This document shows positions 31,478 to 51,599 of a stretch of 64,000 nucleotides of DNA, one piece after another (the stretch's first letter is position 1; each line of letters opens with the position of its first letter). The notes beneath the pieces are model-generated. The model was not told the origin of the DNA. It did no database searches and was given only the letters and a program-made list of their open reading frames with translations. Source of the stretch: Dehalococcoidia bacterium (GTDB taxonomy: Bacteria > Chloroflexota > Dehalococcoidia > SZUA-161 > SpSt-899); assembly GCA_041300025.1 (NCBI GenBank), contig JBGLNL010000001.1, positions 683,888-747,887 of the forward strand, read 5' to 3'. The translations under genes and the position numbers were made by a program.

Positions 31478-31491
31478 GTAAAGGATTAGCT

Positions 31492-32541: not shown

Positions 32542-32550
32542 ACATCGATA

Positions 32551-33510
32551 ATGACAGGGTTGCATGGTATGAATAGAAAAACCCCTTTTATAAAGCGATA
32601 TGACGGGAACCCCATCCTTACCCGGGATGACGTGCCCTATCCGGTAGCCACTGTCCACAATGCCGGGGTTATTAAACACAATGACCGGTATATAATGCTT
32701 TTCAGGTCGCACAGACACAACGGTCGCTGTGTAATCGGCCGGGCTGAAAGCGCAGACGGTTTTTCCTTCACGGTCCATCCCGAACCCTTCCTTGAACCGG
32801 CGACAGACAACGTTTTTGGGGAATATGAGGAGTTCGGAGTCGAGGACCTCCGCATAAACCCCGTGGAGGGCGAATATCTTCTTACCTACAGCGCATACTC
32901 GCGGCATGGAGTGCGCATCGCACTTGCCCGGACAAAGGACCTCAAAAGCATTGAGCGCGTCGCGCTGATCACCCAGTCCGACCTTCGCAATGTGGTTATT
33001 TTCCCTGTGAAATTCCAGGGCAGATACGCGCGCCTGGACCGGCCGCATTCCGAAATGTCACCCTGGTCTATCTGGATTTCCTATTCCCCCGACCTTGTTC
33101 ACTGGGGCGATTCACGGGTGATTATGAAGCCGGTTCCCTATCACTGGGATGAAATGAAAATCGGGCCCGGCGCACCGCCCTTCAAAACCGACAAGGGCTG
33201 GCTTCATATTTACCATGGAGTCTTTAAAACGATGGCTGGGGCGGTGTATCGCCTTGGCGCGGCCCTGCACAACCTTAATGATCCGGCAAAAATCATCGGC
33301 GTTTCTGATCAGTGGATACTGCAGCCCGAGGATGCCTGGGAAGTGAGCGGCTACGTGCCCAATGTTGTTTTTACATGCGGCGCTGTTCCTGAAGACGACG
33401 GTACGGTAAAAATATACTGGGGCGGCGCTGATACCGTCATGTGCGCCGGCACGGCGGTAATTGATGATCTGGTACAGCTTTGTCTGTCGGCTTCCCGGCC
33501 GCCACTGTAG
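32551..33510 (+). CDS. GH130 family protein (beta-mannoside phosphorylase/hydrolase-like, DUF377)
   Basis: ...NPILTRDDVPYPVATVHNAGVIKHNDRYIMLFR...PNVVFTCGAV..DGTVKIYWGGADTVMC matches the GH130 five-bladed propeller pattern. No signal peptide. Confidence 0.85.
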   Translation: MTGLHGMNRKTPFIKRYDGNPILTRDDVPYPVATVHNAGVIKHNDRYIMLFRSHRHNGRCVIGRAESADGFSFTVHPEPFLEPATDNVFGEYEEFGVEDLRINPVEGEYLLTYSAYSRHGVRIALARTKDLKSIERVALITQSDLRNVVIFPVKFQGRYARLDRPHSEMSPWSIWISYSPDLVHWGDSRVIMKPVPYHWDEMKIGPGAPPFKTDKGWLHIYHGVFKTMAGAVYRLGAALHNLNDPAKIIGVSDQWILQPEDAWEVSGYVPNVVFTCGAVPEDDGTVKIYWGGADTVMCAGTAVIDDLVQLCLSASRPPL

Positions 33511-33677
33511 CTTATTATCAAATATCACAACGGGCTTATTGCAAATCAGGAAATCAATAATTTCATAAACTGATCGAAATGACTTTTAGAGGATATGCTG
33601 GGATTGAAAGTCCCCCTGCTAAACAGACTTTCGATGCAGAGCACACAATATCAAACTACCTTTAAGGATACAGTGAT

Positions 33678-35156
33678 ATGGACGCAAAAAAGTATCTAAA
33701 CCCGAAAGTTAAAAGGATAAAGACAACCATTCTGGGGGACACCTCACGCGTTATAACACGCCTTCATATTCCCAACGGGGCGCATCGCATACTTAAAATC
33801 ATTCAACGCATAATAGATTTGCCTGAGGAGACAGCCGAAAAGCTTCTTTCACAAATAATGTTTGATTTTTCAAAGCGGCACAAAGACATCAGACGCATTT
33901 TTGAGCGTCACCTAAATGAGGTAAAAGATTATGTTCCTCGGGACGCCGTGCTAAGTGAGACCAAAATGGCTCTCATCGGGGCCTATTTTACCATGGAGTA
34001 CTCCGTTGAATCGGCTGCCCTTTTTAACCCTTCAATTGTCCTCCACCCTGATCAAAGCCATCTGGACAAAGGCAGCTTGCGTTTTATCATGAGCCTGCGG
34101 GCAATCGGCGAAGGCCATGTTTCCTCCCTTGTATTTCGAAGTGGCGTCCTTGACGAGCACAATACGTTTATCTTCGACCCGGTCAGCGATTATATCGAAA
34201 GGCCGGACGTCCGCCCAAATCCGATTTACGACCGGCATTTGTTCCAGCTGAAGCTCAACGAAATGGGGGCCTGCAATGAGGTAACAGCTCATCTTCTTGG
34301 CCAGTTACCAGATGATTTCAGCTATAATGAATTAAAAGAAAAAATTGGAGCGCTTCGTGCAAAAACCGTTTTCTCTGAGGAGCGCCAAAACGGAACTTTC
34401 GAGATCATTTACTGGCTTGCCAACTCCAATTATGAGATGAATTTCCGACCCGATCACCGAATATCCGAACGGGTTATCTTTCCCGTTTCGAAAAACGAAA
34501 GCAGAGGCATTGAAGACGCCCGGTTCGTGCAATTTTTTGATGACACCGGCGAAGTGACCTATTATGCGACCTATACGGCTTATAACGGCCTTAGAATCCT
34601 GCCGCAGCTGATAGAAACAAAAGATTTTACCAGATTTAAAATTATAACCCTCAACGGCAAAGCAGTAAAAAACAAGGGCATGGCTCTTTTTCCCCGCAAA
34701 ATTGACGGCAGCTACGTTATGCTTTCCCGACAGGACGGTGAAAATAATCATATCATGTTCTCAGACAATATCCATTTCTGGCAGGAGTCCAAAATCATCC
34801 AGGAGCCCACACGTCCCTGGGAATTTATTCAGATCGGCAACTGCGGCTCACCCCTGGAAACCGATCAAGGCTGGATCGTACTCACCCACGGTGTCGGGCC
34901 GATGCGTCAGTATTGCATCGGCGCCATGCTACTTGATCTTGAAAATCCGGGAAAAATCATTGCCCGCCTGGAAGAGCCGTTACTTACCCCGCATGAGGAA
35001 GAGCGCGACGGGTATGTTCCCAATGTCGTTTATACCTGCGGCGCAATTTTTCATAATACCGACCTCGTCATTCCCTATGGCATATCTGATATTAAATCCG
35101 GCATTGCAACCGTTGGAGTGAGGGAATTAATTAACTGCATGCACGCGGTAGGTTAA
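33678..35156 (+). CDS. Long GH130-like protein with a ~250-aa N-terminal extension of unknown function
   Basis: The C-terminal half (EDARFVQF...YATYTAYNG...GYVPNVVYTCGAI..LVIPYGISD) is GH130-like. I do not recognise the N-terminal half. Confidence 0.75.
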   Translation: MDAKKYLNPKVKRIKTTILGDTSRVITRLHIPNGAHRILKIIQRIIDLPEETAEKLLSQIMFDFSKRHKDIRRIFERHLNEVKDYVPRDAVLSETKMALIGAYFTMEYSVESAALFNPSIVLHPDQSHLDKGSLRFIMSLRAIGEGHVSSLVFRSGVLDEHNTFIFDPVSDYIERPDVRPNPIYDRHLFQLKLNEMGACNEVTAHLLGQLPDDFSYNELKEKIGALRAKTVFSEERQNGTFEIIYWLANSNYEMNFRPDHRISERVIFPVSKNESRGIEDARFVQFFDDTGEVTYYATYTAYNGLRILPQLIETKDFTRFKIITLNGKAVKNKGMALFPRKIDGSYVMLSRQDGENNHIMFSDNIHFWQESKIIQEPTRPWEFIQIGNCGSPLETDQGWIVLTHGVGPMRQYCIGAMLLDLENPGKIIARLEEPLLTPHEEERDGYVPNVVYTCGAIFHNTDLVIPYGISDIKSGIATVGVRELINCMHAVG

Positions 35157-35339
35157 TGGTTCCAGGATCGGCGTTTATGAAGCCCATCTGATAGCTTTTT
35201 TTATATTACTTTATAGAAACCATTTTTCACCGAGAGATGTGAATTTGGAATTTTCCATCTCATTCAATACTGTGATACCTGCTATTGATGTGAGCTCTAG
35301 TGGGAGTTCAGATATAGACAGGGTCTGTGAAGAGGAAGC

Positions 35340-35500
35340 TGGTCTTCAGAGCGATAAACCCTGAAATCTGCGCCCACAACATCCGGCACACGGGTTTTTC
35401 ATGGACTTTCGACCGAGGGCTTCCCAGTACTTCAATCTATGGAGGTCCCAAACTTTCAAGCTTGCAGTTGCTAATCGATCGTTTGCAACACCACAGAACA
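35340..35500 (+). pseudogene. Tyrosine recombinase C-terminal fragment (box II region)
   Basis: ICAHNIRHTGFSWTFDRGLP....GGPKLSSLQLLIDRLQHH resembles H-x-L-R-H-T...LGHSSLQTTxRYxH. There is no upstream catalytic core. Confidence 0.4.
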
Positions 35501-35529
35501 AGGGCTGAGGGGAGAAGTCGTGCCCAAGA

Positions 35530-36364
35530 ATGCCCAAATGCGCCAAAAGGGGTATCCGTAAGGACGCCCAAGGCCCAGCTAGTCTTCATCGCGGTCGCTC
35601 CTAAAATCATCCCCCTCAGGATATGTCCCCACGGACTCCTCGTACTTTCTTGCCTTCCTCGTCTCGTCTATGGAATGAGGCGTGTCTATTTGCGTCGGGA
35701 TAGATGCCCCTTGCGCTATTGTGACAGGCTACGCCTGCTGGAAAGGGAGTTCGGAGACAGGCACCTCTGTGAGATCTCTCAAAAGGAGATCCTTGAACAC
35801 CGAAACAGGGTCGCCTCGGAGACTTCAAATCTCACCTCCAACAGAATTTTCATTCTCAAGCAAATTTTCAAGCAGGGAATGGAAATGAACGCGATCAAGA
35901 ACGATCCGGTTGCTGCCATGTCATACCTCAGTGAGAAGAAGCATGTCAGGAACGAGTTCCTCATGCCTCCGGAATCGGATCACCTACTTGAGGCGTGCCA
36001 GAAACTGCGATCAAGAGATTTGTTACCGGCGGCGATCTGTCTGGGAGCTGAACATGGAGCTTCGAAGCAGGAAATCCTGGATCTGAAATGGACCGACATC
36101 GATTTCGAGTTCGAGGGGAGCGCCCGCATCAAAGCCTCGGATATCTTACCCCGGCTGAGGTCCACTATGCTCACTGAGAATCCATATTCAAGGCAATGGG
36201 CATCCACCTTATTTTTCCAATTTTGTGGTCTTGACAATGGGGTCAACCTCAAGGATCTCGCCAGGTTCTATGCGAACTCGAAAGAAACGAAAGAATCTAG
36301 TAAGCTATACAGAAGCCACACAGAGGTCAAAAAGGGGTCTCTGAACAGAAAAAGAGCCGATTAG
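35530..36364 (+). pseudogene. Tyrosine integrase, frameshifted and internally degraded
   Basis: ATG 35530 gives MPKCAKRGIRKDAQG (typical integrase N-terminus), then a stop at 35602. A second frame continues with SAM-like-domain sequence and LDLKWTDIDFE (box I region, Arg lost). The C-terminus is degenerate. It ends 35 nt from the tRNA-Ala 3' end. Confidence 0.6.
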
Positions 36365-36394
36365 GGGTTGCCTAACCCGCTCTTTTTCTTGATC

Positions 36395-36445
36395 TTTTTG
36401 GTGGAGCTGGACGGGATCGAACCGACGGCCTCATGAATGCCATTC
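36395..36445. repeat. att-type direct repeat, right copy (inside intact tRNA-Ala)
   Basis: Identical to 28316-28366. Confidence 0.9.
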
Positions 36446-36474
36446 ATGCGCTCTCCCAACTGAGCTACAGCCCC
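36399..36474 (-). tRNA. tRNA-Ala(GGC), CCA encoded
   Basis: The reverse complement is GGGGCTGTAGCTCAGTTGGGAGAGCGCATGAATGGCATTCATGAGGCCGTCGGTTCGATCCCGTCCAGCTCCACCA. It has the G3:U70 identity pair and anticodon loop AU-GGC-AU. Confidence 0.95.
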
Positions 36475-36475
36475 C

Positions 36476-36581
36476 CGCAGAGCGCCATCTGCTGTATGTA
36501 GCTTGCACTCGTGCGCGGGATCATCTTCTCGTAACCGGCGTTGAGCCAGCATCAGAGTTCCTGGACGATCTGGATAGATAG
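36476..36581 (+). pseudogene. UvrD/PcrA-like superfamily-1 helicase, C-terminal ~33-aa remnant
   Basis: The frame reads ..ERHLLYVACTRARDHLLVTGVEPASEFLDDLDR*, the helicase motif VI/terminal region. The 5' side is cut off at the tRNA. Confidence 0.5.
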
Positions 36582-36596
36582 GTGCTAAGGGGAAAT

Positions 36597-37370
36597 ATGT
36601 ACAAACTCGCAATTGATAAACTGACGTTTGTGAATAATTTACTGGAATGGTATAATAAGTCTCTTTCTAATCCCAATTCGAAAGTGCTGCCGCATCCCGA
36701 GTATGGTCGCTGGAAGAAGTGGAGCGATGACCGTATTTGGTGTTCTGTATTTTTCAGCATCGGAGTCAAAGGAGGGTCAAGAGCGGCACGGGATTATTTG
36801 GAGTCAATCGAAAAAGGATTGGAAGAATTTGAATTACCGATTGCCAGTCTTACCCCGCTTGAGTTTGGTGATAGAATGCGGAAAATATGGCGATTTGGAC
36901 GTGGATACAATCGTTCAGGAAAGGCGCTGGGGAGATTCTTTAGCAAAGATGAGAATTTCGGAAGAAAAAATAGCTTTGAAAAAAGCATAGCTGAATCTTT
37001 TGGAGTATTAGAAAAACACGGTTTTGCGAAATGGTTTCGGGAAATTTCCGAGTATAATGACGATCGTAAAAAAGCTCATTTCATGGAAGAATTGCCGGGT
37101 GTAGGTCTTAAAGTTTCCCGTGATTTCTTGAATGATATTGGGATGACGAATTCACTAATTGCCCTGGATATTCATGTTCTCGCCGAAATGAGAGACACTT
37201 GGAAATGGGCCGTACCGCCGACTACGCCCAATGATAGAACGATCTATGAAGCGATTGAAGATGGCGTCAGGGCAGTTGCAGAGTCAATTGGAGTGACAGT
37301 TCTTGAAATTGATAAGGCAATATACTTTTCGCGCATGACTGCTGAATTCAGACTAAATAGAAATGACTAA
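36597..37370 (+). CDS. HhH DNA-glycosylase-like protein (archaeal OGG / OGG-fold family)
   Basis: ELPGVGLKVSRDFLNDIGMTNSLIALDIHV resembles the Ogg2-type helix-hairpin-helix block (GIGxKxASxFLRxxG...AIxDxHI). The rest is unrecognised. Confidence 0.55.
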   Translation: MYKLAIDKLTFVNNLLEWYNKSLSNPNSKVLPHPEYGRWKKWSDDRIWCSVFFSIGVKGGSRAARDYLESIEKGLEEFELPIASLTPLEFGDRMRKIWRFGRGYNRSGKALGRFFSKDENFGRKNSFEKSIAESFGVLEKHGFAKWFREISEYNDDRKKAHFMEELPGVGLKVSRDFLNDIGMTNSLIALDIHVLAEMRDTWKWAVPPTTPNDRTIYEAIEDGVRAVAESIGVTVLEIDKAIYFSRMTAEFRLNRND

Positions 37371-37694
37371 ATCAGTATGGGTGTTTCATATTTGTGACCA
37401 TCCTGTGTCCACACCCCGCCAAAAGAGGCGGAAACAGATACAACCAGACAAAAGAATACAAAAACAAAATTTTATCCTTAATTCTTGAGTGTCAACGTAA
37501 TACGCTGGTATGCAATGGCTTGAGGGTAATGTGGTCGGAGAATCCCAGCGCCTCCGCTTTATTGCGCACCGAACTTTATTATCATTTCATTATCGACAAT
37601 TATTCATTTTCTTCTCAAAGTCTAATTTCAAACTGACTCGCAGCCATTCAATATAAGTCATTGCAAAAAACTGAAATTCAACATATTTTTTAAT

Positions 37695-39125
37695 ATGGGC
37701 AGAACGATATTAGACGTTGACCCGCTGATACTTAGAGACCGCCTGCATGCGCTCTTCTTGTGCAGCCAATCGGTTATGAATGTAGCGGTCGAAATGCTTC
37801 TGAAAAGTCACCGGTTCAAAATCAAATTGGAAATAGCTGGCGCAACCAATCCGGGCTATTCACTCTTTATAAAAATAGCCAATAAGTTGAAAGTTGATTA
37901 CATTACTCCGGAAATTCCAGAAGAATTAAGGCCTTTTCCATTGAAATGGATATCAGATAAAAGTACCGCAAATTTAAGAACCTGGATACCGGAGATGAAA
38001 GATAGAGAGGGAGATTATCATATTCTCCTCCCTTTCTATTTACGATATCATCTCGATAAACTGCGGGAACGAGAACCCAATTTCCCCATGCCACAAATCG
38101 ATAACTTGTATTTATTATCCCGCTGGGAAGAATGTTTTGTATACCAGGTTCCATTATCAATAACGGCATTAAAGGATCTTCTTTCCTATGAAAGATTCCC
38201 ATATCTTTCAATCCCATCACCCCTTTTCAGTTTTATCGGGACAGGTTTTGTGGAGCAGCGACTTTTTCGATTGGACGATCTTTCGCAATTATATCTTGGT
38301 TTTTGCAGCGGGCCAGAAAAATGGAACCTTGTCAACGGGGTTGAAATAGAGAAGCACCCCTACAACATGGCATTGAGAAATAAACTCAGTGCGATGACCT
38401 TGCGATCAGGAAATCGCAGGACACCCTCATATCCGGTATTGGTGCGGCATTTTACTTGGGATTTGGAGCAGCTGGGCTTGATTATTGAAAATGCTTCCGT
38501 TCTAAACATGATAAATAAGCATTTGCCGAAGGAAAGAGCGGACAGAATCAGAAACTGCCTTTTATTTAGATTACGTGGCTTATCAGAAGATGAAATCAAA
38601 GGTGAATTGGGTTTTGGGAATCAGGAAGAATACTATGAATGGCAAGTCGCTAACAGGATCAATATCATCTCTAAAGATTACCGTGATCCGTATGATGCCT
38701 GGCAGAATGCCTGTGAGTTTTTTGAAATTGAACCAAATATCGAAATACTGGACAATGTTCAAATCTCGGCAGCTACAAAAGATGAACCGAACGCAAGTGA
38801 TTCCGGGCCGACCGGGATTCAACTCCCTCCGATTACAATCGCCAGGCACTCAGACGGTTTTGCTTCAATCGTAACATCTAATGGCAAATCTATATCATTA
38901 ACCGGGAAACAAGCTCATTTAATATCCAAACTTCACGAAGCATATGTTAACGGCACACCCGAGCTATTACAGGCTCGTTTTATAAACGAAATTTATGGTG
39001 AGGTAAAAGAAAACCGGCTCCAGAAGCTTTTCGGGAACAACGACGCTTGGAACGAGCTTATTGAAAAAGGAAGAAGAAAGGGTCTTATACGTTTGAAAGC
39101 CATAAAACCCGATAATTCGGATTAA
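37695..39125 (+). CDS. Hypothetical 476-aa protein with a possible sigma-70 region-4/LuxR-like HTH
   Basis: The long ORF looks coding by eye. ADRIRNCLLFRLRGLSEDEIKGELGF is HTH-like. No catalytic motif recognised. Confidence 0.5.
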   Translation: MGRTILDVDPLILRDRLHALFLCSQSVMNVAVEMLLKSHRFKIKLEIAGATNPGYSLFIKIANKLKVDYITPEIPEELRPFPLKWISDKSTANLRTWIPEMKDREGDYHILLPFYLRYHLDKLREREPNFPMPQIDNLYLLSRWEECFVYQVPLSITALKDLLSYERFPYLSIPSPLFSFIGTGFVEQRLFRLDDLSQLYLGFCSGPEKWNLVNGVEIEKHPYNMALRNKLSAMTLRSGNRRTPSYPVLVRHFTWDLEQLGLIIENASVLNMINKHLPKERADRIRNCLLFRLRGLSEDEIKGELGFGNQEEYYEWQVANRINIISKDYRDPYDAWQNACEFFEIEPNIEILDNVQISAATKDEPNASDSGPTGIQLPPITIARHSDGFASIVTSNGKSISLTGKQAHLISKLHEAYVNGTPELLQARFINEIYGEVKENRLQKLFGNNDAWNELIEKGRRKGLIRLKAIKPDNSD

Positions 39126-39248
39126 TCTTAAAATTTCTGTGGGTGACAGCAATTCACCCAGAAAACTCCCCCAAAAAAACGTCGATTTCGCCTAACCACC
39201 CAGGTATACACCCACGTAGCTCCCCACTTGGTGTATTAGTCTCCTTGC

Positions 39249-39506
39249 ATGAAAAAGGGACGATTATTAGATGATCGTTTAAGGCGCAGTAATAATGGCG
39301 AGCAAGCTATTTCATCCCCTAATTGCGCCGGATTGGAACATCAAGCTGTGAAGGAGCCCTCATCGCCGGGGGATAATTTCACATTTAAAACCATTGAACT
39401 CGCCCCGCTGGACGACCAAACACTCGATCTTGAGAACTGGTTAGCCGGTCTTTTTGTCGAATATTGGCTGTCAAAAGGGCGAGCAAGTCAAAAGGAGATA
39501 GAATAA
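39249..39506 (+). CDS. Hypothetical 85-aa protein
   Basis: The ORF abuts the next gene (stop TAA 39504-39506, ATG 39507). No motif recognised. Confidence 0.35.
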   Translation: MKKGRLLDDRLRRSNNGEQAISSPNCAGLEHQAVKEPSSPGDNFTFKTIELAPLDDQTLDLENWLAGLFVEYWLSKGRASQKEIE

Positions 39507-39740
39507 ATGAACGCAGAAGTCTATAAAACATCTGACATCGCGTTGGCGGCTTATTTGTCGATGCAGGGATTTTCTATACGGGGGGTGGCATTTAATGGCG
39601 ACCGAAGATCTGTCTTTCAGTTCGAAGATGAACCGGGTTGCCAGGAACATGTCCTGAGATTTTTCAACCGCAATACAATGGTTGAACCAATCGCTTTTCT
39701 TGACCATGTCAAGAGCCTGAAGGCGATGATTAAGCAGTAA
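39507..39740 (+). CDS. DUF5659 domain protein
   Basis: YKTSDIALAAYLSMQGFSI...DRRSVFQFED......F....MVEP..F...VKSLKAMI matches the DUF5659 pattern common in phages and mobile elements. Confidence 0.6.
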   Translation: MNAEVYKTSDIALAAYLSMQGFSIRGVAFNGDRRSVFQFEDEPGCQEHVLRFFNRNTMVEPIAFLDHVKSLKAMIKQ

Positions 39741-39779
39741 ATAATAATCTGATGAGATGTGATGATATGAAAATTCGGT

Positions 39780-40526
39780 ATGAAAACAAGTGATAAAATT
39801 GTCGGGGGACTGGGAGCATCTTCGGAGCTGTCCAAAAAGCTACATCACCCGGGACCGGATATCAGGCCATGTGTGGCACAGATGCTTGAATCCTCATATA
39901 CAAAGGGGGATTATCCCAATCGGAATGCCGCGGCTCATATAATCGCTTGTGAACTTAGGCGAATCGGGTGTTCTCATGATGAGGTCCTGCAGCGAATAAT
40001 AGCATGGAATGATGGAAATACCGCGCCATTAAGTATATCTGAATATTCCAAGGCGGTTCGCAGTGCATTTGCCAAAGACTATAATTATTCCTGTTATCAT
40101 CATTTCTTAGAACCGACTTGCATTGGACCCGACGCATGTCCGTTTTCATCAAGAGTTAAATCGAATCAGAAATATTATAACAATAGAAAATTCATTCGAT
40201 ACCGCTGGCCAGAATTACTTCCTAATGTAGCCATATTGATATACTACATAGCATTAATTGAGCTCGAAAGAATACGGCAGGTCGGGGCAGGGGGAATGAT
40301 ATACGCCAGTTATCGGGAGATCGCCAAATTATGCGGGGTAAATCCCGGATCAATTATGAGAAATCTGGCTATACTGCAAAGCCATGGCCTGATTGAATTG
40401 AAAATTGGAACCCCGCGAAAGTGGGAGAGAAGCGCAACCGAGATAAGGCGCGTTATTCCCATTCCGAGACCATCACAGAATTTATTGAGGAAACTATATG
40501 ATGAAAAACCATACACAGAAAAGTAA
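39780..40526 (+). CDS. PriCT-like domain plus winged-HTH protein (putative replication/regulatory protein)
   Basis: NRNAAAHIIACELRRIGCSHDEVLQRIIAWNDGNTAPLSISEYSKAVRSAFAKDYNYSC resembles primase C-terminal (PriCT) domains. C-terminal YREIAKLCGVNPGSIMRNLAILQSHGLIE is wHTH-like. Confidence 0.45.
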   Translation: MKTSDKIVGGLGASSELSKKLHHPGPDIRPCVAQMLESSYTKGDYPNRNAAAHIIACELRRIGCSHDEVLQRIIAWNDGNTAPLSISEYSKAVRSAFAKDYNYSCYHHFLEPTCIGPDACPFSSRVKSNQKYYNNRKFIRYRWPELLPNVAILIYYIALIELERIRQVGAGGMIYASYREIAKLCGVNPGSIMRNLAILQSHGLIELKIGTPRKWERSATEIRRVIPIPRPSQNLLRKLYDEKPYTEK

Positions 40527-40582
40527 GTTTTCCACACACATTAAGACAGTATCCAATATTTATATAAAGGGGATTATTTCTT

Positions 40583-41098
40583 ATGTCTGTTAATCATTCA
40601 AAAGTAATGCCTTTGAATTTAAAAGAGCTGTTCGGAAGAGAATATAAAATTGAAATAGACGAATCTGCGAATTGCCCTGGTGAGAGTAAAAGCGATCCGT
40701 GGTATTATCGGGTCGCCTGTAAATACGGCCATATATATCCCTATTCCGACAAAAGGCTCGGATTTTATTGCGAAAGCGGAAATATCCGAAACCGTCTTCG
40801 TCAGGAGCATCCTGAGATTGATGTCTTTAATTGGAGTGATGACGGCGGGGCAGTCTTCCTGTTTCCCGTTGGACTTTTTAAACTAATATCCGGCTACGCC
40901 AAACCGAGGCAAAAACGGAGACTATCCCAGGAGCATCGCCGAAGACTGGAATTAGCGGGACAGCGATACAAATTTAAACCTTTAAAACATGGGTCTGAGA
41001 GCGTGAAATCGACTCAAATTTCAACGAAAGGAGTCGGGGTAGTAATAGGGGGGAGATGGTCAGGCCAGAGAAACGCGCTTGGAGATTCAAAAAGCTAA
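40583..41098 (+). CDS. Hypothetical 171-aa protein (mobile-element associated)
   Basis: DPWYYRVACKYGHIYPYSD...PRQKRRLSQEHRRRLE pattern. No function known to me. Confidence 0.4.
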   Translation: MSVNHSKVMPLNLKELFGREYKIEIDESANCPGESKSDPWYYRVACKYGHIYPYSDKRLGFYCESGNIRNRLRQEHPEIDVFNWSDDGGAVFLFPVGLFKLISGYAKPRQKRRLSQEHRRRLELAGQRYKFKPLKHGSESVKSTQISTKGVGVVIGGRWSGQRNALGDSKS

Positions 41099-41288
41099 TT
41101 TGAGGGATTAAAATGATGTTGAAATTCATTAGGCATATTCACCTGGTAAATTATCCGCCAGCGAGTGACAACAATTGCCATTTAGGATTCGCTCGTAAGG
41201 CACCATCCGATAGAATGTTATCGAATAAACGTATCACCAGGGAATTGGTGATAACCCTATTGATTTCGAATTGTATAGCAGGGGGTAT

Positions 41289-41870
41289 ATGGGCATGCCA
41301 GTAGGCAAAGGGGTCTGGTATCCCAAGACAAGAACGAGCGAGTGCCTCCAGATTGATATGGCATATCTGAACAAGCATTTTGACCTCGAAAAAGAACATT
41401 CGGCTACTATGTCGTGGACAGGCAGTTTTGGCAAAAGGGACCGCGTTTGTATTCGTATTGAACCGCCCGGGTTTATCAGGCTTATCTACACTATCACCAA
41501 GAAGTCAGGCGAAAAAATTGATATGAATTACCGAGTTTATATGGATATGACTGAGTGTAATTTAGGTGGAATACGATACTGGTTTGTCTGCCCAATATGT
41601 CAAAGAAGATGTCGCGTAATATATCTCCCTCCCGGCGGCCATCGCTTTACGTGTCGTATCTGTAACAACCTGACTTATGCCAGCACTCAGGAAGGCTATC
41701 CGAGATGGAAGGCGATACAAGAAGCGACCTTCATGTTGCCAAAATGGGAAAGACAGTATTTCAGGGCCAGGTCAGATAAGAAACGCCAGCGATTGCTAAA
41801 AAAGATGAGACGGGTTGAATCAGGTTTGAAAGCTTTTATTGCCTGGAGCAAACGAGTTCTTAGAGAATGA
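41289..41870 (+). CDS. Hypothetical zinc-ribbon protein
   Basis: GGIRYWFVCPICQRRCRVIYLPPGGHRFTCRICNNLTYAS (CPxC...CRxC). Family members are often found beside recombinases. Start choice (41289 versus TTG 41271) is uncertain. Confidence 0.45.
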   Translation: MGMPVGKGVWYPKTRTSECLQIDMAYLNKHFDLEKEHSATMSWTGSFGKRDRVCIRIEPPGFIRLIYTITKKSGEKIDMNYRVYMDMTECNLGGIRYWFVCPICQRRCRVIYLPPGGHRFTCRICNNLTYASTQEGYPRWKAIQEATFMLPKWERQYFRARSDKKRQRLLKKMRRVESGLKAFIAWSKRVLRE

Positions 41871-42139
41871 TAGAACATATGTTCCTATCGATACATTGAC
41901 AGAAATTAGGCATAATGAATTATGAATATTTTATATGTATGTATGCAGGTATTTAATGTTTTTGGTTGACAAAAGAGATAAAAATGGCGATATTAATAAT
42001 GCTAAAGTAATCAAATGTCTGGCTATTTTTGTGTACGAAAGTTTAGCCCGAGCCGGTTTTCTTGTAGCTGGACTGATTACTTTAGCAATAATCTCCGGTG
42101 AAACTGGCTTGGGCTTTATATTTAAGAGGCGGTGATGAG

Positions 42140-43837
42140 ATGAAAGAAAATGTAGCCGTTTATTTCCGATGTAGCACTGATAAACAGGACAATTCGATTG
42201 CTGATCAGCGGAGAATAATCGCTGAGCATGCCATCAAAAATGCTATGCAAATCACGACGTGGTTTGACAAAGACGAAGGGAAATCAGGAACCAGCTTCGA
42301 AAAACGTCCTGATTTTATGAAAATGGTGAAAATTGTGGAATCTGGCAAAAATGATTTCACACGTATCCTCGTTTATGATGTCGATCGATGGGGGAGACCG
42401 ATTGACCCTGACGAATCGACATATTGGGAATACCATTTCAAACGGTACGGAGTTCAGGTAACATATATTTCCGATGAGTCAATTAATGATAATTCTCTGG
42501 CCGGAAGATTAACGAAAAAGATCAAACAGGAACTTGCCACCGAGGAAAGCCGAAAACAATCTCTAAGAGTCCGTGAACGGTCAAAGCTGAGGGCTGCTGA
42601 GGGATTCCGTGTCGGGGGATATGCACCATATGGATATAAACGACTTTTGGTTGAGGCGAATGGAACGCCGATCAAGGTATTGGAACATGGCGAGCGGAAA
42701 TACGAAAAGCATCAACGAGTGATATTGACCCCGGGGAATCCGGAAGAAATAAAAGTGATTAAGAGAATATTCATGCTCAGAACAAAGGGGTATGGTTATA
42801 AATCTATCGCAAATATGCTTAATGAGCGGAATACCCCGTCCCCAGGTAAATTAAGAGGCAATATAAAAAGGGAGACGAAATGGTCAGCCGGTTCAATTCG
42901 GAGCATAATCAGAAATCCAGTATATAAAGGCGACTGGACCTATAACCGGCAAGTTCGTGGCAATTGGGTTAAAGATGAGACGCCAGATATATATTTCCAT
43001 CCCGTAAGCGAGCATATTAATCACAAGAACTCTCATAGCGGCCTTATTTCGACTGAGCAATTCGACCAAGCCAATTCGATTAGGAACTACCAGCCCGGAC
43101 GCCAGACTGTATATAGAAATGGAAGATCGGCATATCTTTTGTCCGGTTTGATTAAATGCAAATCCTGTGGTTATTGTTTCCAGGGCCATATACATAGGAA
43201 TAAATATGGCGAATGGAGATACTATGAAGACGGGGGTTTCTATAGTCGCGGATCATCGGTTTGTTCGTCCTTTCATATTCCCAAAGAATTGATTGAAAGC
43301 TTTGTAATAAAGGAAATAAAAAGGAAGGTTTTTTCGGCAGTGAATATTTCGAGATTGGAATCTCTGATTGAGCAACGACTGATAGCCTATAAATCACTGA
43401 CTCCAGATAATTCCAGGATTGCCAAACTTGAGGGCGAGCTTGCAGATGTAATTGGTCGGCTTGAGAATATCAAAGATGGCATTGAGAAGGGACTGCCGAT
43501 GGACTTTATAGGCGACCGGATTACCATGCTTGAACGTCGGAAACAAGAATTGGAGGCGGAGAAAACCTCGCTACAGAAGAAGGTTGGTAATGGTATAGAT
43601 GCAAATGAGTTTCGACGATCAACATACAATTATCTTGATGAATTTGACAGCGCATTCCAAAATGCGTCGAATATTAAGAAAAAAGAGCTCTTACATGCGT
43701 TTGTTAATCGAATTGAAATAGACAAAAGTCAAGGTGTAGCAACCTGTTACATTCACAAAATACCATCAGAAGTTAAAGTCTATCAATGCCGGAGGTCGGA
43801 CTTGAACCGACATGATGTTGCCATCGGGGGATTTTGA
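42140..43837 (+). CDS. Large serine recombinase
   Basis: VAVYFRCSTDKQ (catalytic Ser), DVDRWGR, a recombinase domain, a zinc ribbon CKSCGYCFQG, and a C-terminal coiled coil (LEGELADVIGRLENIKDG..). The last 17 codons are antisense to tRNA-Leu. Confidence 0.85.
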   Translation: MKENVAVYFRCSTDKQDNSIADQRRIIAEHAIKNAMQITTWFDKDEGKSGTSFEKRPDFMKMVKIVESGKNDFTRILVYDVDRWGRPIDPDESTYWEYHFKRYGVQVTYISDESINDNSLAGRLTKKIKQELATEESRKQSLRVRERSKLRAAEGFRVGGYAPYGYKRLLVEANGTPIKVLEHGERKYEKHQRVILTPGNPEEIKVIKRIFMLRTKGYGYKSIANMLNERNTPSPGKLRGNIKRETKWSAGSIRSIIRNPVYKGDWTYNRQVRGNWVKDETPDIYFHPVSEHINHKNSHSGLISTEQFDQANSIRNYQPGRQTVYRNGRSAYLLSGLIKCKSCGYCFQGHIHRNKYGEWRYYEDGGFYSRGSSVCSSFHIPKELIESFVIKEIKRKVFSAVNISRLESLIEQRLIAYKSLTPDNSRIAKLEGELADVIGRLENIKDGIEKGLPMDFIGDRITMLERRKQELEAEKTSLQKKVGNGIDANEFRRSTYNYLDEFDSAFQNASNIKKKELLHAFVNRIEIDKSQGVATCYIHKIPSEVKVYQCRRSDLNRHDVAIGGF

Positions 43838-43870
43838 GTCCCCTGCGTCTACCAGTTTCACCACTCCGGC
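43787..43870 (-). tRNA. tRNA-Leu(CAA), class II long variable arm, CCA not encoded
   Basis: The reverse complement is GCCGGAGTGGTGAAACTGGTAGACGCAGGGGACTCAAAATCCCCCGATGGCAACATCATGTCGGTTCAAGTCCGACCTCCGGCA. Perfect 7-bp acceptor stem and anticodon loop CU-CAA-AA. Confidence 0.9.
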
Positions 43871-43875
43871 ATTAA

Positions 43876-44532
43876 GGCCTAAACCATTTTACATTCCGCA
43901 TATTAAACATACCGAAGGCAAAATCCAAAGAACTGATTCCAAATATCCGTCGGGCCGCTCAAGGCGAAATGCCTCTCCCGTTGGAAGAACTGTACCTCAC
44001 ATGGCAACCTTTGGGGATTAAGGGGAACAGGCAGGATGTCTTTGTGGTGGGCATTCCCAAAGAGCCCATCGACCTTCTCATTGCAGCTTTAGAGAAAGCC
44101 AGAATCAAGCCATATATTCTGGATCTTAAAGCGCTGGCATTGGCCAGGGCAATTAATTGTCGCAATGGCTTGATACTGGATCTCGAACCTGATAATTTTG
44201 GGATTACTGTCGTGGCCGAGGGCCTTCCTTCCATTATGCGAACCTTCATCCCTAAGAAGGGCGAGATGATTCTGGAAGATAATGTGCGACGCTTGGGTGG
44301 AGAGATCGTCCGAACTATGGAATTCTACAACCGCGAGCATGCCGAGAATCCAATAAGCGCGGATACGCCAATCTATCTGACCGGGGAAACAGCTGAGTTA
44401 CCTGATGCAACGGTGATCATCCAGGAGGAAATTGAATATCCCCTCAAAAAACTGGTATTCCCATTTGCACACGATCCGGCTTTCCCGATCGCTTCGTATG
44501 CAGTTAATTTAGGGCTTTCCCTGCGCGGTTAA
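43876..44532 (+). pseudogene. pilM: Type IV pilus assembly ATPase-like protein PilM, missing its N-terminal ~90-130 aa
   Basis: The frame opens 5 nt after the tRNA-Leu 5' end. ..FRILNIPKAKSKELIPNIRRAAQGEMPLPLEELYLTW... is the middle of PilM. No start codon or RBS precedes the conserved sequence. The track ORF starts at an internal ATG (43969). Confidence 0.65.
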
Positions 44533-44571
44533 CATGGAAGTTGTCATATCTTTGAATAGGAGAGCAGAATT

Positions 44572-46518
44572 ATGAAACTTCGAGGTGGCGACAAACCGAT
44601 AGTTACTTCTACCGGATTTCGGGACATCCGAATCAATCTATGGGGAGAAAAATATGGCCCTAATCCCAAGCCAGTGGGACTGGTATTGCTAATAATTATA
44701 GCGATAATAGCCGTAGGTGGTTTATACCCAGCATATCTATGGGAAACCGATGTCGCTGATAAAACCTCCAGTATGCAAAATGATCTGGACGAACTTGAGA
44801 AAAATATTGAGAGATTAATGCGACCTCCTGAGGAAGAAAGTGAGTTAGCAAAGCTCGAAGCCGAGATTGATGTTCTGCGATCTGCTCGTGAAGCTATAGA
44901 AGGTGACTATGGGCATTTCGTGGGGACGATAAAGGCGGTAAACGATACGATGCCCCCGACAGCTTGCTGGACGTCTATCACATTGGACTCTGACACTATT
45001 AGTTTGAAGGGCGATGCCGATACTCCCTCAGGATTGTTTGCCATTGCCAGGGCTTTTGAAGAACGCAGTGAATTTGAGGCAGCTAATATCAGAAATATAG
45101 GGACAACTGAGCAAACAGGGAGAGCAATGAGCGTTGAGGTAAAAGACGCCGGGAGCGTGGAGGTTACTCAAATGCTGCTGGCGACTGGAGAAAATATACT
45201 CTCCCCAGTGGGGCCGGGATCATTTTCATCCGAACTCATTAGCGATCCAATCGAAAGTGAGAGCGGTCATGAAGCTTCCACAAGTGGAGGGGCAACAATT
45301 GAACCCTATCATCAAATATCTACCATAAGTGCTCAAATAGTCAGCGGGAACCTCTGGGAACCGCCGGTTACTATTAAATTCAGCGGGACGGCCAGCTTTT
45401 ATTATCCTATAGACAAATACAAATGGGAATTCTCGGATGGGGCAGTAAAAGAGGTGGATTTGGGGGACCCGGGCCCCAAACAATTACCCATTTCAACAAT
45501 GCATACCTTTACTGCGGAAGGTGATGCTTCAGCGAATCTAACGGTAATCGATGATCATGGATGGAAGGTATCAGCTACCAAAGGAGGAATATTTGCCACA
45601 GCCGATACCGATTTCATCGCCGAACTGGTCTCCTGCGATAATCCGCTGAAGTTAAGATTCAAACCACAAATCATTTCGGCAGAGAAAATTACTTCCTATA
45701 AGTGGTACTTTGGAGAAGATGAGGAGGAGGAGGAGGAGGAAGGGGAAGCAGTTAGTAATGAACCGGATAGCACCGATATGATGCCAATTCATACTTTCGA
45801 TAAGGTGGGTGAATATACTGTGACTCTGACTGTATCAGGCCAACTGGATAAGCCCATATCCATAAGCCATATCGTGACAGCCAGCGGGACACCAACAGCC
45901 GATTTTTACCCCGAACGGTTAACGGGGGAAGAAAAGTTTACGGTCCGTTTCGCAGATGCCTCTGTTCCCGATGGAGATACGGATTCTAAAGGGAACGCAC
46001 ATCAAATAGTTCAGTGGGAATGGGATTTTGGGGATGGAACTACACTTAGCGGGTCACCAAATCCTGTTCATGCCTATGTTGATAATGGGCCTTATGCCGT
46101 GACACTCAAAGTCTGGGAATCGGATGCTAACTGTGCCCTTATTACTAAAACCATTCAGGCATGCGATTCGAAATATAGCCAGTTCTTTGTTGAACCCGGA
46201 AACGGTGAGATGAAAATTGATTTCTCGGCCCCTCTGTCGCAATCAACAGGTATAGATTTCCTCTGGGATTTTGGAGTGATTGATAAAGATGGCAATCCTG
46301 TCACTTCCACACAAGCCAATCCTTCATATAAATACGATTACAGCGGAACCTATCATGTAAGCTTAAGAATCACCGAAGAAAAGAAATCTACCGATCTAGA
46401 GGTGAAGAGGCTGGTAAGCTTTATAAGTGCGGATATTAATATTATAAGTTCAACTTCAACATCTTTCAGCTTAGATGTAATACCCGCAGTCCCCGCAGAA
46501 GAAAACGGGAAAAGCTGA
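44572..46518 (+). CDS. PilN/PilO-like membrane protein fused to several PKD-like domains
   Basis: N-terminal single TM plus coiled coil (as in PilN). At least 3 PKD-like modules (e.g. WEWDFGDGTTLSGSPNPVHAYVDNGPYAVTLKV). Poly-Glu tract from (GAG)6 at 45721-45738. Confidence 0.6.
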   Translation: MKLRGGDKPIVTSTGFRDIRINLWGEKYGPNPKPVGLVLLIIIAIIAVGGLYPAYLWETDVADKTSSMQNDLDELEKNIERLMRPPEEESELAKLEAEIDVLRSAREAIEGDYGHFVGTIKAVNDTMPPTACWTSITLDSDTISLKGDADTPSGLFAIARAFEERSEFEAANIRNIGTTEQTGRAMSVEVKDAGSVEVTQMLLATGENILSPVGPGSFSSELISDPIESESGHEASTSGGATIEPYHQISTISAQIVSGNLWEPPVTIKFSGTASFYYPIDKYKWEFSDGAVKEVDLGDPGPKQLPISTMHTFTAEGDASANLTVIDDHGWKVSATKGGIFATADTDFIAELVSCDNPLKLRFKPQIISAEKITSYKWYFGEDEEEEEEEGEAVSNEPDSTDMMPIHTFDKVGEYTVTLTVSGQLDKPISISHIVTASGTPTADFYPERLTGEEKFTVRFADASVPDGDTDSKGNAHQIVQWEWDFGDGTTLSGSPNPVHAYVDNGPYAVTLKVWESDANCALITKTIQACDSKYSQFFVEPGNGEMKIDFSAPLSQSTGIDFLWDFGVIDKDGNPVTSTQANPSYKYDYSGTYHVSLRITEEKKSTDLEVKRLVSFISADINIISSTSTSFSLDVIPAVPAEENGKS

Positions 46519-46528
46519 GGGATCTTTA

Positions 46529-46652
46529 AAAAATAAGTGGTGACTTCAAGAGGCTGGGGGAGTCGTTCCTCCAGCCTCAAAAAAACCCAGGATAGAATAT
46601 CCGCCTTTGGGAGGATTGGGGGGTATAAAGGAATTAATAAGAGGTTCCCTGA
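46529..46652. repeat. Degenerate MITE-family copy
   Basis: aataagtggtgacttc..ctggggg..tccagcctc....attggggggtata...aagaggttccctga is colinear with the 51468-51575 copy. It ends 3 nt before the pilT ATG. Confidence 0.55.
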
Positions 46653-46655
46653 ATA

Positions 46656-47732
46656 ATGAGAATAGATGATATGCTGCGCCTGACGGTGGAGAGTAATGCT
46701 TCTGACCTCCATCTGAGAGTAGGAATACCGCCGGTTTTGCGTATCGACGGCAAGCTTGTTTCCCAATATCAGATACCGGAGATGACGCCGGAGGGAATGA
46801 AGGAAATACTGGAGAGCATAACCAGCAAGGAGGAAGCAGCAAATTTTTACCGGGATTGGGAACTGGACTTTGCTTATGCCCTTGAAGGCGTCAGCCGGTT
46901 CCGGGTAAATGCACATTACCAGATGGGAACAATTGCCATGGTGTTCCGCACAATCCGAAACGAAGTACCTTCCATAGAGGATTTGGACCTGCCTGAAATT
47001 TGCAAGGACATGGTTCTCGAGAGCAACGGAATGGTTATCGTGACCGGGCCTACCGGTTCCGGTAAATCTACTACCCTTGCTGCTATGCTGAGATATCTGA
47101 ACGAAAGAGTGAGTGCTAAGGTAGTTACCATTGAAGACCCCATAGAGTATGTTCATACAGATAATCAATGTCTTTTCATCCAGCGAGAGGTTGGAAACGA
47201 TACGCATGACTTCGCGGCTGCCCTCAAGCACTCGCTGCGCCAGGACCCTGACGTTATCATGGTCGGAGAGATGCGTGATCTGGAAACAATTTCTACAGCG
47301 CTAACTGCGGCGGAAACAGGACATCTGGTCCTGACTACGTTGCATACCCCCGGTGTGGCTCAAGCGATGGATCGAATGATCGATGTCTTTCCGCCACACC
47401 AACAGCAACAAATTAGACTCCAAATTGCTCAGACAATTAAAGGAGCCCTTTATCAGTGTCTGGTACCATCTATTCAGGGGGAGGGCCGCGTAGCTGCCGT
47501 AGAAGTGTTAATAGCCAACACCGCCGTTAGAAGCATTATCCGGGAAGGAAAAACCCACCAGTTACTAAATTGTATTGAGACGGGAATGGAATATGGCATG
47601 CAGACAATCGACCAGGCCCTTGTAGACCGCTACAAAAGAGGGAAAATCAGCAGAGATATGGTACTAGAATGGTGTAGAGACCCAATGGAAACCAAGCGAT
47701 CACTCGATGCCATTTTGTTAAAACAGAAATAG
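46656..47732 (+). CDS. pilT: Twitching-motility ATPase PilT
   Basis: ASDLHLRVGIPPVLRIDG and Walker A GPTGSGKSTT. 358 aa. Confidence 0.9.
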   Translation: MRIDDMLRLTVESNASDLHLRVGIPPVLRIDGKLVSQYQIPEMTPEGMKEILESITSKEEAANFYRDWELDFAYALEGVSRFRVNAHYQMGTIAMVFRTIRNEVPSIEDLDLPEICKDMVLESNGMVIVTGPTGSGKSTTLAAMLRYLNERVSAKVVTIEDPIEYVHTDNQCLFIQREVGNDTHDFAAALKHSLRQDPDVIMVGEMRDLETISTALTAAETGHLVLTTLHTPGVAQAMDRMIDVFPPHQQQQIRLQIAQTIKGALYQCLVPSIQGEGRVAAVEVLIANTAVRSIIREGKTHQLLNCIETGMEYGMQTIDQALVDRYKRGKISRDMVLEWCRDPMETKRSLDAILLKQK

Positions 47733-47765
47733 CAAATTTATCCCAGCTTGACTCAAGGAATATTC

Positions 47766-47805
47766 AACTTGCCATGTGGAAAAATCTGCATGGCAAGTTT
47801 CTTTA
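47766..47805 (+). terminator. Intrinsic terminator after pilT
   Basis: aacttgccatg-12nt-catggcaagtt followed by tcttt. Confidence 0.65.
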
Positions 47806-47942
47806 AGTCCCCTCTTTGTATTAACAAAGTTAACTTCTTTGCTTTGCATGTACAGGGCTTGCCAAAGACTTGCCGTTTCATGGATAATCTGGAAGGATAG
47901 CAAAGCGAATGAACCGAATAACGGATTCAAGGATAACTGAGC

Positions 47943-49013: not shown

Positions 49014-49023
49014 GAGACATAAC

Positions 49024-49608: not shown

Positions 49609-49639
49609 GAGGAAAGCGGTAAGCCGGTATCGCTTACTG

Positions 49640-51142: not shown

Positions 51143-51209
51143 TTTATATGCCTCTCTGCTGGAACTGATAACGCCCCAGTTTGCTTCTTATTGTAACGGC
51201 ATTGGGCCT

Positions 51210-51467
<258 letters not shown>

Positions 51468-51575
51468 TTAAGGAACCTCTGAATAAGTGGTGACTTCGGG
51501 GGTCTGGGGGTGTCCCCCCAGCTTCGATCTTCCCCCAAGATTGGGGGATAGAGGGGGTTGATCAGAGGTTCTTAA
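51468..51575. mobile_element. MITE-like element, best-preserved copy (108 bp)
   Basis: Terminal inverted repeats TTAAGGAACCTCTGA / TCAGAGGTTCTTAA. Internal G/C hairpins (ctgggggtgtccccccag; tcccccaagattggggga). TA dinucleotides at both tips. Confidence 0.7.
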
Positions 51576-51599
51576 CAAAGTACGGACTTACATACTCAA

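Follow-up and report, generated by a model that had tools for sequence, protein, structure and literature searches.

The locus and its genes

The window analysed here, that is, the whole stretch of 64,000 nucleotides (nt) taken from contig JBGLNL010000001.1 of a Dehalococcoidia bacterium (GenBank assembly GCA_041300025.1, positions 683,888 to 747,887), contains a compact block of genes at window positions 36478-43883. Over these ~7.3-7.4 kb, nine open reading frames (ORFs), all of them on the plus strand, lie between two tRNA genes (Table 1). The rightmost ORF encodes a large serine recombinase (LSR) and runs into the opposite-strand gene of a tRNA-Leu(CAA). On the evidence set out below, the part of the block from 36478 to ~43785 (7.3 kb) is probably an integrative mobile element of a small and previously undescribed family, whose recombinase would join an attachment site of the element (attP) to one in the tRNA-Leu gene (attB). 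Elements of this kind, integrative islands at an RNA gene, are already known; what is new is the gene set, together with the linkage to tRNA-Leu through an ORF that ends in the anticodon loop.

An earlier interpretation of this DNA, made by a model from the letters and their translations (the sequence-only reading), had described a stretch more AT-rich than its flanks. The guanine-plus-cytosine (GC) content of 36478-43785 is indeed 0.420, as against 0.490 for positions 1-28100, 0.487 for the neighbouring tRNA-Ala island, 0.468 for 43885-51246 and 0.483 from 51.6 kb on (0.42 vs 0.47-0.49 overall), a dip that is modest yet unbroken from ~36.8 kb to 43.85 kb. The eight co-oriented genes of that reading are all found where it placed them, on the plus strand, with a ninth and small ORF added here, and its domain assignments (Ogg-like, DUF5659, PriCT plus winged helix-turn-helix (wHTH), serine recombinase) were reproduced in profile searches. 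It had also called the gene set essentially undescribed, which agrees with the size of the families: among 5.8 billion proteins, the 476-amino-acid (aa), PriCT and zinc-ribbon proteins fall in four, five and six clusters, respectively.

Table 1. Features of the block and of its immediate neighbours, in window coordinates.
Feature	Position	Strand	Basis or remark
tRNA-Ala(GGC)	36399-36474	-	left neighbour of the block
Left end of the element (P' side)	36478-36581	.	candidate crossover CA at 36478-36479
Ogg2/AGOG-like helix-hairpin-helix (HhH) DNA glycosylase, 257-262 aa	36597-37370	+	Pfam, NCBIfam, PHROG and PDB matches
476-aa protein, no assigned function	37695-39125	+	family libraries empty
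85-aa ORF	39249-39506	+	no family match
DUF5659 ORF, 77 aa	39507-39740	+	DUF5659, E 1.5e-14
PriCT_1 + Cys motif + wHTH protein, 248 aa	39780-40526	+	Pfam
171-aa protein, no assigned function	40583-41098	+	no family match in any library
Zinc-ribbon protein (CPxC...CRxC), 193/199 aa, basic helical tail	41289-41870	+	four-Cys motif
Small ORF, 59-66 aa	41935/41956-42135	+	AT-rich recombinase leader, GC 0.34
Large serine recombinase (LSR), 565 aa	42140-43837	+	Resolvase + Recombinase + Zn_ribbon_recom
tRNA-Leu(CAA)	~43787-43870 (43786/7-43870/1)	-	ARAGORN; Rfam, 51.2 bits
tRNA-Leu leader, 13 nt	43871-43883	.	common to L009/L010; identity stops at 43883
pilM without codons 1-75	43884-44532	+	flank, outside the element

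Near-identical copies with other flanks

The block is present at 99.8-100% identity in more than ten independent assemblies from JGI, Logan and NCBI (L007-L017 and L046-L049), which were recovered through exact-protein look-ups and BLAST. Two JGI assemblies (L007, L008) are 99.9% identical to the window from 36478 on, and to the left of that position they carry AGTATATAACA in place of the tRNA-Ala sequence. This comparison sets the left breakpoint at 36477/36478, 3 nt from the tRNA-Ala 5' end and within 2 nt of the boundary (36476) given by the sequence-only reading. On the other side, two NCBI contigs from metagenome-assembled genomes (MAGs; L009, L010) are identical to the window through the tRNA-Leu and 13 nt more, to 43883, beyond which they continue to PBP1A (minus strand), tyrS and other housekeeping genes, and not to pilM. 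Three positions (38969, 38981 and 42202) distinguish the window copy from all the others. An identity of 99.8-100% across many samples, together with two sets of flanks, points to a recent move of the block: the element is real and recently mobile. The earlier view of a discrete integrative element, neither an obvious prophage nor an integrative and conjugative element (ICE), is thereby supported, both by the different flanks found elsewhere and by the lack of structural and type IV secretion system (T4SS) genes detailed below.

The recombinase gene and its overlap with tRNA-Leu

The LSR shows the complete domain series of its class in Pfam: PF00239 Resolvase (E 1.9e-21, residues 19-169 of the 579-aa ORF), PF07508 Recombinase (E 3e-21) and PF13408 Zn_ribbon_recom (E 8.9e-9). 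The nucleophilic Ser sits in the motif VYFRCSTDKQ, and PHROG 95 (integrase) is matched at E 2e-84. The best NCBIfam matches are XisF (1.2e-30) and CcrB (1.7e-26), with scores far below the equivalog cut-offs. The ORF overlaps the antisense tRNA-Leu(CAA) by 51 nt, with its final 17 codons opposite the 3' half of the tRNA and its TGA stop in the anticodon loop. The sequence-only reading was therefore right about a 565-aa serine recombinase at tRNA-Leu, to which it has to be added that the ORF continues into the tRNA. This tRNA-Leu, which is identical to the one in L009/L010, is either the integration target or, less likely, a gene carried by the element.

Eight relatives of the LSR, at 46-83% identity, were found in a metagenome scan. 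In the three with enough contig beyond the gene (L023, at 77%, and L026 and L027, at ~52%), an antisense tRNA-Leu(TAA) directly follows the LSR gene every time; L025 equals L026 where the two overlap, and its contig stops 28 nt into that tRNA, where ARAGORN calls none. As in the window, the LSR ORF of L023 stops in the anticodon loop, and that of L026 traverses the whole tRNA. The 3' acceptor/T-arm of tRNA-Leu differs between CAA and TAA at only 2 of 22 positions, which would account for the use of both isoacceptors.

The neighbouring genes are also partly shared, and the search for the same gene order in other assemblies, suggested by the sequence-only reading, found parts of it in the LSR relatives L023, L026, L028, L029 and L030. 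L023 keeps the order of 171-aa protein, zinc-ribbon protein and small ORF, with the 171-aa homologue (56% identical) in the equivalent position and a zinc-ribbon homologue at 41%. L030 keeps the 85-aa, DUF5659, PriCT and small ORFs, whereas single homologues are found of the 476-aa protein (L026 and L029), of the 85-aa ORF (L026) and of DUF5659 (L028). The gene order common to the relatives therefore defines a conserved core, composed of the 171-aa protein, the zinc ribbon, the small ORF, the recombinase and tRNA-Leu.

Two of these relatives occupy one host site, a MatE locus. L026 (6058-9297) has the order LSR, complete tRNA-Leu(TAA), a 273-aa gene, ParB_N, a Dam methylase, a lone tRNA-Leu 5' half and MatE. 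The lone half, 3.1 kb past the complete tRNA and directly next to MatE, begins in the anticodon arm, and its acceptor sequence differs. L027 (4644-4860) is a decayed derivative at the same site, with the recombinase frameshifted, 3.1 kb deleted and a tRNA-Asp on the left.

A candidate route of integration

Serine integrases recombine a short attP with a short attB through a 2-bp crossover, and excision requires a separate directionality factor. In the element, attP would overlap the 3' end of the LSR's own gene and attB would be the 3' end of the tRNA-Leu gene; the overlap of attP with the 3' end of the LSR gene would be the reason why the ORF reads into the opposite-strand tRNA when integrated. 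The dinucleotide CA is found at both candidate junctions, left (...CCCCCCG[CA]GAGCGCC) and right (...GTCTAT[CA]ATGCCGG), the latter at 43784-43785, directly beyond the 3' end of tRNA-Leu, and this common CA, a shared dinucleotide such as serine recombinases need, is the putative crossover. The predicted attP would then consist of 43760-43785 joined to 36478-36505, and in the circular form the LSR ORF would close seven codons on, ending ...KVYQSAICCM*. An empty site would read as an intact tRNA-Leu with TGTTATATACT downstream, L007/L008 then matching attL. Direct repeats of tRNA-Leu are absent from the left end at up to 3 mismatches, and local alignment gave chance matches of 10-11 nt alone.

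As to the control of the reaction, the block of 171-aa, zinc-ribbon and 59-66-aa proteins travels with the LSR and would be the likeliest source of excision or directionality control, the directionality factor possibly being one of the 171-aa, zinc-ribbon and 59-aa proteins. The PriCT_1 plus wHTH protein, a non-catalytic relative of the PrimPol+PriCT replicase of L030, might at most bring a primase of the host or of a helper to the excised circle.

We prefer an element that ends just beyond the 3' end of a host tRNA-Leu over one that carries the tRNA. In L009, a near-perfect sigma-70 promoter (TTGACA-16-TATATT, 11/12) lies directly upstream of tRNA-Leu, within the 69 nt that separate the tRNA from the PBP1A stop and that hold no tRNA remnant, and the tRNA-Leu locus of this contig looks native.

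Replication and transfer functions

The sequence-only reading had proposed a minimal integrative replicon, which we could not uphold. The 248-aa protein matches PriCT_1 (E 9.6e-7) and HTH_36 (E 1.8e-6) in Pfam, without a primase-polymerase or helicase catalytic domain there, and iterons or tandem repeats were not found near its gene. The same slot is filled in L030 by a 787-aa PrimPol+PriCT_1 protein, to residues 228-340 of which the 248-aa protein aligns; the catalytic region of the larger protein (weak DNA_primase_S and LigD_Prim-Pol matches) is left unaligned. The short form is kept at this length in five clusters (241-252 aa), the other four being 50-68% identical to that of the window.

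The claim that capsid, terminase and conjugation genes are missing was confirmed by scans against Pfam, PHROGs and NCBIfam. The same scans gave no relaxase, Rep_trans, MOB or T4SS-related family in any ORF, though a cryptic origin of transfer (oriT) could be present, and no type IV secretion or coupling protein gene in the 7.4 kb; PHROG structural matches were also absent. Searches of phage (INPHARED), plasmid and IMG/VR sequences matched the tRNA alone and gave no relatives of the element, PADLOC models returned no credible defence system, and we found no helper or packaging signal. By the tests applied, all of them made on sequence, the element is not classed as a prophage, satellite, ICE or plasmid, and the satellite-like nature suggested by the sequence-only reading finds no support.

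A rearranged right flank

The most unexpected part of the locus is the rearrangement at the right end of the element. The pilM gene that follows is truncated: its Pfam PilM_2 match begins at profile position 103, its frame is open back to a stop at 43873, and the cut lies 13 nt past the tRNA-Leu 5' end. A tblastn search with the intact PilM recovers residues 76-290 only, and codons 1-75, pilC and pilB are absent from the entire 64-kb window. An intact 290-aa pilM is found in six contigs of the same species (L031, L032 and L034-L037), after pilB, pilC and a 214-aa gene and with no tilS or tRNAs before it; these contigs share an identical 648-aa downstream protein, their DNA is 98.7-99.7% identical, and their homology to the window starts at 43884. 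In three related Dehalococcoidia (L018-L020, pilM 80-82% identical) nucleotide homology to the window likewise starts only at 43885, and in the pilM region of the more distant L021 and L022, nucleotide alignment gave nothing usable. The breakpoint at 43883/43884 cuts the -10 box of the promoter that precedes tRNA-Leu in L009, and no promoter is left upstream of the tRNA in the window.

The segment that begins at this breakpoint (43884-51246, 7.4 kb) runs from pilM codon 76 through pilN/O-like and pilT-like genes, a glycosyltransferase and DUF6657 to a radical SAM gene. In MAGs of the same species it lies between pilB-pilC-214aa and a complete rpoC. In the window, what follows is an internal rpoC piece of 206 nt (51247-51452); compared with the three contigs that reach that far (L031-L033), 251 nt are lacking at 51246/51247. 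A MITE-like palindromic repeat (MITE, miniature inverted-repeat transposable element) and unrelated DNA from the rbfA-infB side come next. Four breakpoints (36477, 43883, 51246 and 51452) are thus found within 15 kb. One independent contig, L038, spans exactly 43918-51246, and another, L033, starts at 43918.

Because pilM is truncated here and intact elsewhere, and because the junction cuts a promoter, we regard the right flank as a secondary rearrangement or a misjoin and not as native context. Either a 7.6-kb pil-rpoC segment has been duplicated in the genome and is now joined to the element, or the contig was misjoined. For the same reasons, and since the intact pilM has other neighbours in the six contigs, the earlier picture of an accretion zone between tilS and pilM has to be corrected. 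A simple insertion of 36478-43883 into one target was considered and rejected, as the flanks are contiguous in no reference and the first part of pilM, pilC and pilB are not in the window. More generally, tRNA-adjacent accretion zones in MAG-derived sequence can conceal secondary rearrangements or misjoins.

Two minor features accompany these breakpoints. The MITE-like repeat (51468-51577, ~110 nt), which marks the right breakpoint of the rearranged segment, has 15-nt terminal inverted repeats (TIRs), TTAAGGAACCTCTGA, and folds at z = -3.6; a TIR match lies at 19462-19476 and an inverted copy in L031 at 14446-14568. At the left junction of the segment (43864-43890), the intact pilM (L031 6995-7015) reads ...AACCGGCATCCATTTTACA and the window ...CTCCGGCATTAAGGCCTAAACCATTTTACA; the 7-mer CCGGCAT adjoins the breakpoint in both parents and may be a chance microhomology or a pseudo-att site.

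Weighing the alternatives

Several observations weigh against the interpretation as an element integrated at tRNA-Leu. No empty site and no circular junction were recovered, so that both att sites are predicted ones, the 11-nt left flank of L007/L008 being found nowhere else in the window or in the compared loci. The dyad symmetry of the reconstructed attP does not exceed chance, with a maximum of 13/24 over right-end positions 43650-43900. The flanks in the window are not those of a simple insertion site, with the tRNA-Ala 5' end plus 3 nt on one side and pilM codon 76 on the other, and exact-protein look-ups found neither junction of the window in an independent assembly: no record has the pilM in its truncated form, and contigs of the tRNA-Ala island stop before 36190. 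Autonomy is doubtful, because neither a catalytic replication protein nor a transfer function was found. Lastly, the complete tRNA of L026/L027 looks element-borne, and the same could hold in the window.

This last point leads to a different account of the right end, in which the element carries a complete tRNA-Leu (with its promoter in the full form), breaks a host tRNA-Leu or some other site, and has its right end beyond the tRNA, the window copy being truncated at 43883. The order in L026, where three mobile-type genes lie between the complete tRNA and the 5' half next to MatE, and the decayed copy at the same site in L027 favour it, as does the identity of the window and L009/L010 through the tRNA and 13 nt more despite the different flanks beyond. 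However, the short interval from tRNA to PBP1A in L009, with its near-consensus promoter, shows no trace of a broken tRNA, neither end of the block in the window has a tRNA-Leu remnant, and L026 may have received its ParB/Dam segment in a separate, older insertion; we therefore consider an element-borne tRNA rather unlikely. To a similar degree we doubt that the context of a real element (tRNA-Ala on the left; the truncated pilM, the 7.4-kb pil segment and the 206-nt rpoC fragment on the right) is an assembly chimera. The intact pilM of the six same-species contigs, three contigs that run from the segment to an intact rpoC, the concentration of breakpoints and the absence of the window junctions from every other assembly on record would all be expected of a misjoin. 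On the other hand, the junctions lack a long common repeat that a graph assembler could cross, L038 and L033 show the ends of the segment as branch points in independent assemblies, identical PriCT and zinc-ribbon proteins occur on a 1,771,430-bp NCBI contig, which suggests a long and possibly closed source assembly, and the window copy of the element has three single-nucleotide differences of its own.

The two remaining explanations deny that the block is a working mobile unit. It could be the decayed remnant of a prophage or larger island that has lost its structural or transfer genes, as the missing catalytic replication domain and transfer genes, the much larger replicase in the same slot of L030 and the frameshifted recombinase of L027, a sign that such elements do decay, might suggest; this we hold to be improbable, given that all ORFs are intact and tightly packed, that the 248-aa PriCT form is kept at the same length and 50-68% identity in four other clusters, that near-identical copies in many samples with two flank sets point to recent movement, and that PHROG structural matches are lacking. 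That the block consists of ordinary chromosomal genes of the lineage between two tRNAs is refuted as far as the data go, and can hardly be maintained on co-orientation and a modest GC difference, the only features in its favour, when 5.8 billion proteins contain hardly any members of the gene families, a recombinase is present, the flanks vary among assemblies and the homology of L018-L020 to the window starts only at 43885. The sequence-only reading had itself named conserved, syntenic lineage genes without a recombinase as the finding that would contradict it; what we found are rare families whose homologues, where there is enough context, adjoin recombinases.

A bolder extension of the integrative element proposed here can also be imagined, and we think it quite unlikely as a whole. 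The element would belong, as a mini member dependent on a helper, to a family of serine-recombinase replicons that is linked to tRNA-Leu and specific to Dehalococcoidia. Of the replication machinery it would keep only the PriCT plus wHTH protein, an adaptor that uses the PrimPol of larger relatives (such as that of L030) or the host primase, and the 476-aa, 171-aa and zinc-ribbon proteins would be new excision, replication or transfer factors. Its LSR would also drive rearrangements, such as the one that moved the element, tRNA-Leu and the duplicated 7.6-kb pil-rpoC segment here.

Relation to known elements

The genomes of Dehalococcoidia are small and streamlined, and gene flux in them runs mostly through a few hot spots. 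To our knowledge, the only characterised vehicle of this flux is the family of ssrA islands. A second recombinase-driven family, at tRNA-Leu, would widen the view of DNA exchange in the uncultured members of the class; its accessory genes have almost no homologues anywhere, and its serine integrase is compact and has a tRNA target that can be predicted.

The ssrA genomic islands of Dehalococcoides are also the closest described system. They carry a CcrB-like serine recombinase of ~540 aa, DsiB, at attL, with the ssrA repeat embedded in dsiB, and their module comprises ParB, a Mom-like methylase and a primase-domain protein, with tandem accretion and no conjugation genes (McMurdie et al. 2011, PMC3146451). 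As in the element, an LSR of ~540-565 aa is found at the island end that borders the gene of a small RNA, and the recombinase gene contains, in its 3' part, the 3' end of the target RNA. Further points of likeness are the host class, the absence of conjugation and capsid genes, tandem stacking and a primase-domain protein in the module, to which the relative L026 adds ParB and a methylase; the LSR is likened to DsiB by described architecture and not by sequence. In contrast, the element lacks what defines these islands, namely the ssrA target, in place of which it has tRNA-Leu, the 20-bp direct repeat and DsiA (a second, small serine recombinase); it also has no RecF-like gene, ParB or Mom, and its cargo is an Ogg-like glycosylase and not rdhA.

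Other families resemble the element in part. The serine-recombinase integrative and mobilizable elements (IMEs) of Firmicutes, of the Tn4451 family, in most cases interrupt protein genes that the host can do without (Guedon et al. 2017, PMC5704250). They have in common with the element a small size, one LSR, very short attL/attR repeats, an optional replication-initiator-like gene and a transfer that depends on other elements; as in an IME, integration and excision have a module of their own, with the LSR present and the flanks different elsewhere. Unlike them, the element has no recognisable relaxase, oriT or mobilisation protein and sits at a tRNA. Phage-type serine integrases, the CcrB of SCCmec and XisF share the architecture of Resolvase, Recombinase, zinc ribbon and coiled coil, but the element has no phage or SCC gene content. 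The PrimPol-PriCT replicases of integrated plasmids and satellites likewise place PriCT_1 before a DNA-binding domain, as the full PrimPol+PriCT_1 protein of L030 illustrates, whereas the window protein has no PrimPol catalytic or helicase domain.

The accessory genes

The first gene of the block encodes an Ogg-like glycosylase with several partial matches: Pfam Ogg-HhH (E 1.2e-4, 22.1 bits against a curated cut-off of 27), NCBIfam PRK01229 (E 1.6e-7, 31 against a cut-off of 183), phrog_11575 (E 3.6e-7) and the MjOgg structures 3fhf/3knt of the PDB (E 2e-4). The HhH Lys and the catalytic Asp align in the latter, where the motifs GVGLKVSRDFL and ALDIHVL meet those of MjOgg, 3knt being a Lys-to-Gln mutant at that Lys. 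In Pfam and NCBIfam no full-length match reaches the curated thresholds, as only the C-terminal 100 aa are covered and the N-terminal 150 aa are unmatched. The gene falls within the block common to the window and L007/L008, and the Ogg2-like glycosylase is probably cargo.

The 476-aa, 85-aa and 171-aa proteins have no family in Pfam, PHROGs or NCBIfam. A HMMER scan of 1.84 billion representatives gave 26 full-length relatives of the 476-aa protein at E<1e-30. In the same representatives, its C-terminal ~95 aa (residues ~375-470) occur in 1828 proteins of many architectures at E<=0.001, and no Pfam family covers them; this C-terminal part is a widespread, unannotated and probably DNA-binding domain. 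Apart from L026 and L029, homologues are also found in the recombinase-bearing loci L001-L006, otherwise different from the window, where they adjoin tyrosine and serine recombinases. Those of L001, L005 and L006 are 42-46% identical and lie in other mobile loci; L001 (580-11521) has the order 914-aa N6/N4 methyltransferase, 1038-aa ResIII helicase, 476-aa homologue, helix-turn-helix (HTH) protein, tyrosine integrase, HTH_3 protein and serine recombinase. Loci of the L001 type are a different, recombinase-rich element family with one gene in common with ours.

The 85-aa and DUF5659 ORFs share one frame without a spacer and are parted only by a TAA stop (39504-39506), which reads TTA in L007 (3037-3039) to give a single 163-aa ORF. 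A variant of the PriCT region is seen in one JGI assembly, L013, whose sequence (1-141, against window 40346-40486) differs upstream of 40487; the protein encoded there is another one, which has no more than the final 13 codons in common with the PriCT gene. L013 is a mosaic variant in which the replication-like gene has been replaced.

In the zinc-ribbon family, C101, C104, C122 and C125 are invariant. Pfam gives a sub-threshold RING-finger match alone (zf-C3HC4_3, E 0.0014), with nothing in PHROGs or NCBIfam, and the protein is a candidate DNA-binding or excision cofactor. Sequence and profile searches of the PDB with the 171-aa, zinc-ribbon, 476-aa and PriCT proteins returned nothing significant, and the AF2 models of the 476-aa (pLDDT 44) and zinc-ribbon (pLDDT 51) proteins were too poor for a fold search. 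The small ORF next to the recombinase is called as a gene in L012, L013 and L015 and is conserved in L023 and L030. The recombinase leader contains a 17-nt inverted repeat (41997-42013 / 42074-42090) that is 94% complementary.

The neighbouring tRNA-Ala island and tilS

To the left of the element lies a separate island at tRNA-Ala (28316-36445), bounded by an exact 51-nt direct repeat (28316-28366 = 36395-36445) that starts at the 3' end of the tRNA and reaches its anticodon stem. Its cargo includes two GT4 glycosyltransferases and two GH130 phosphorylases. A 345-aa ORF beside tRNA-Ala (35327-36364) was considered as a second serine recombinase and discarded, since it is not similar to the LSR and its one signal, of a tyrosine recombinase, is faint (XerA, E 0.009). 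Upstream of this ORF, the JGI contig L040 (7518-7644) has ~125 nt more than the window (35492-35494).

At 27960-28107, the Pfam domains of TilS stop near residue 463 and the ORF continues for ~50 codons. On the opposite strand, this extension encodes the N-terminus of an XRE-type HTH protein (MKTNQLKQVRESLLISKSELARKAG...), and L040 starts at 27976. The XRE stretch at the 3' end of tilS is probably the remnant of an older insertion.

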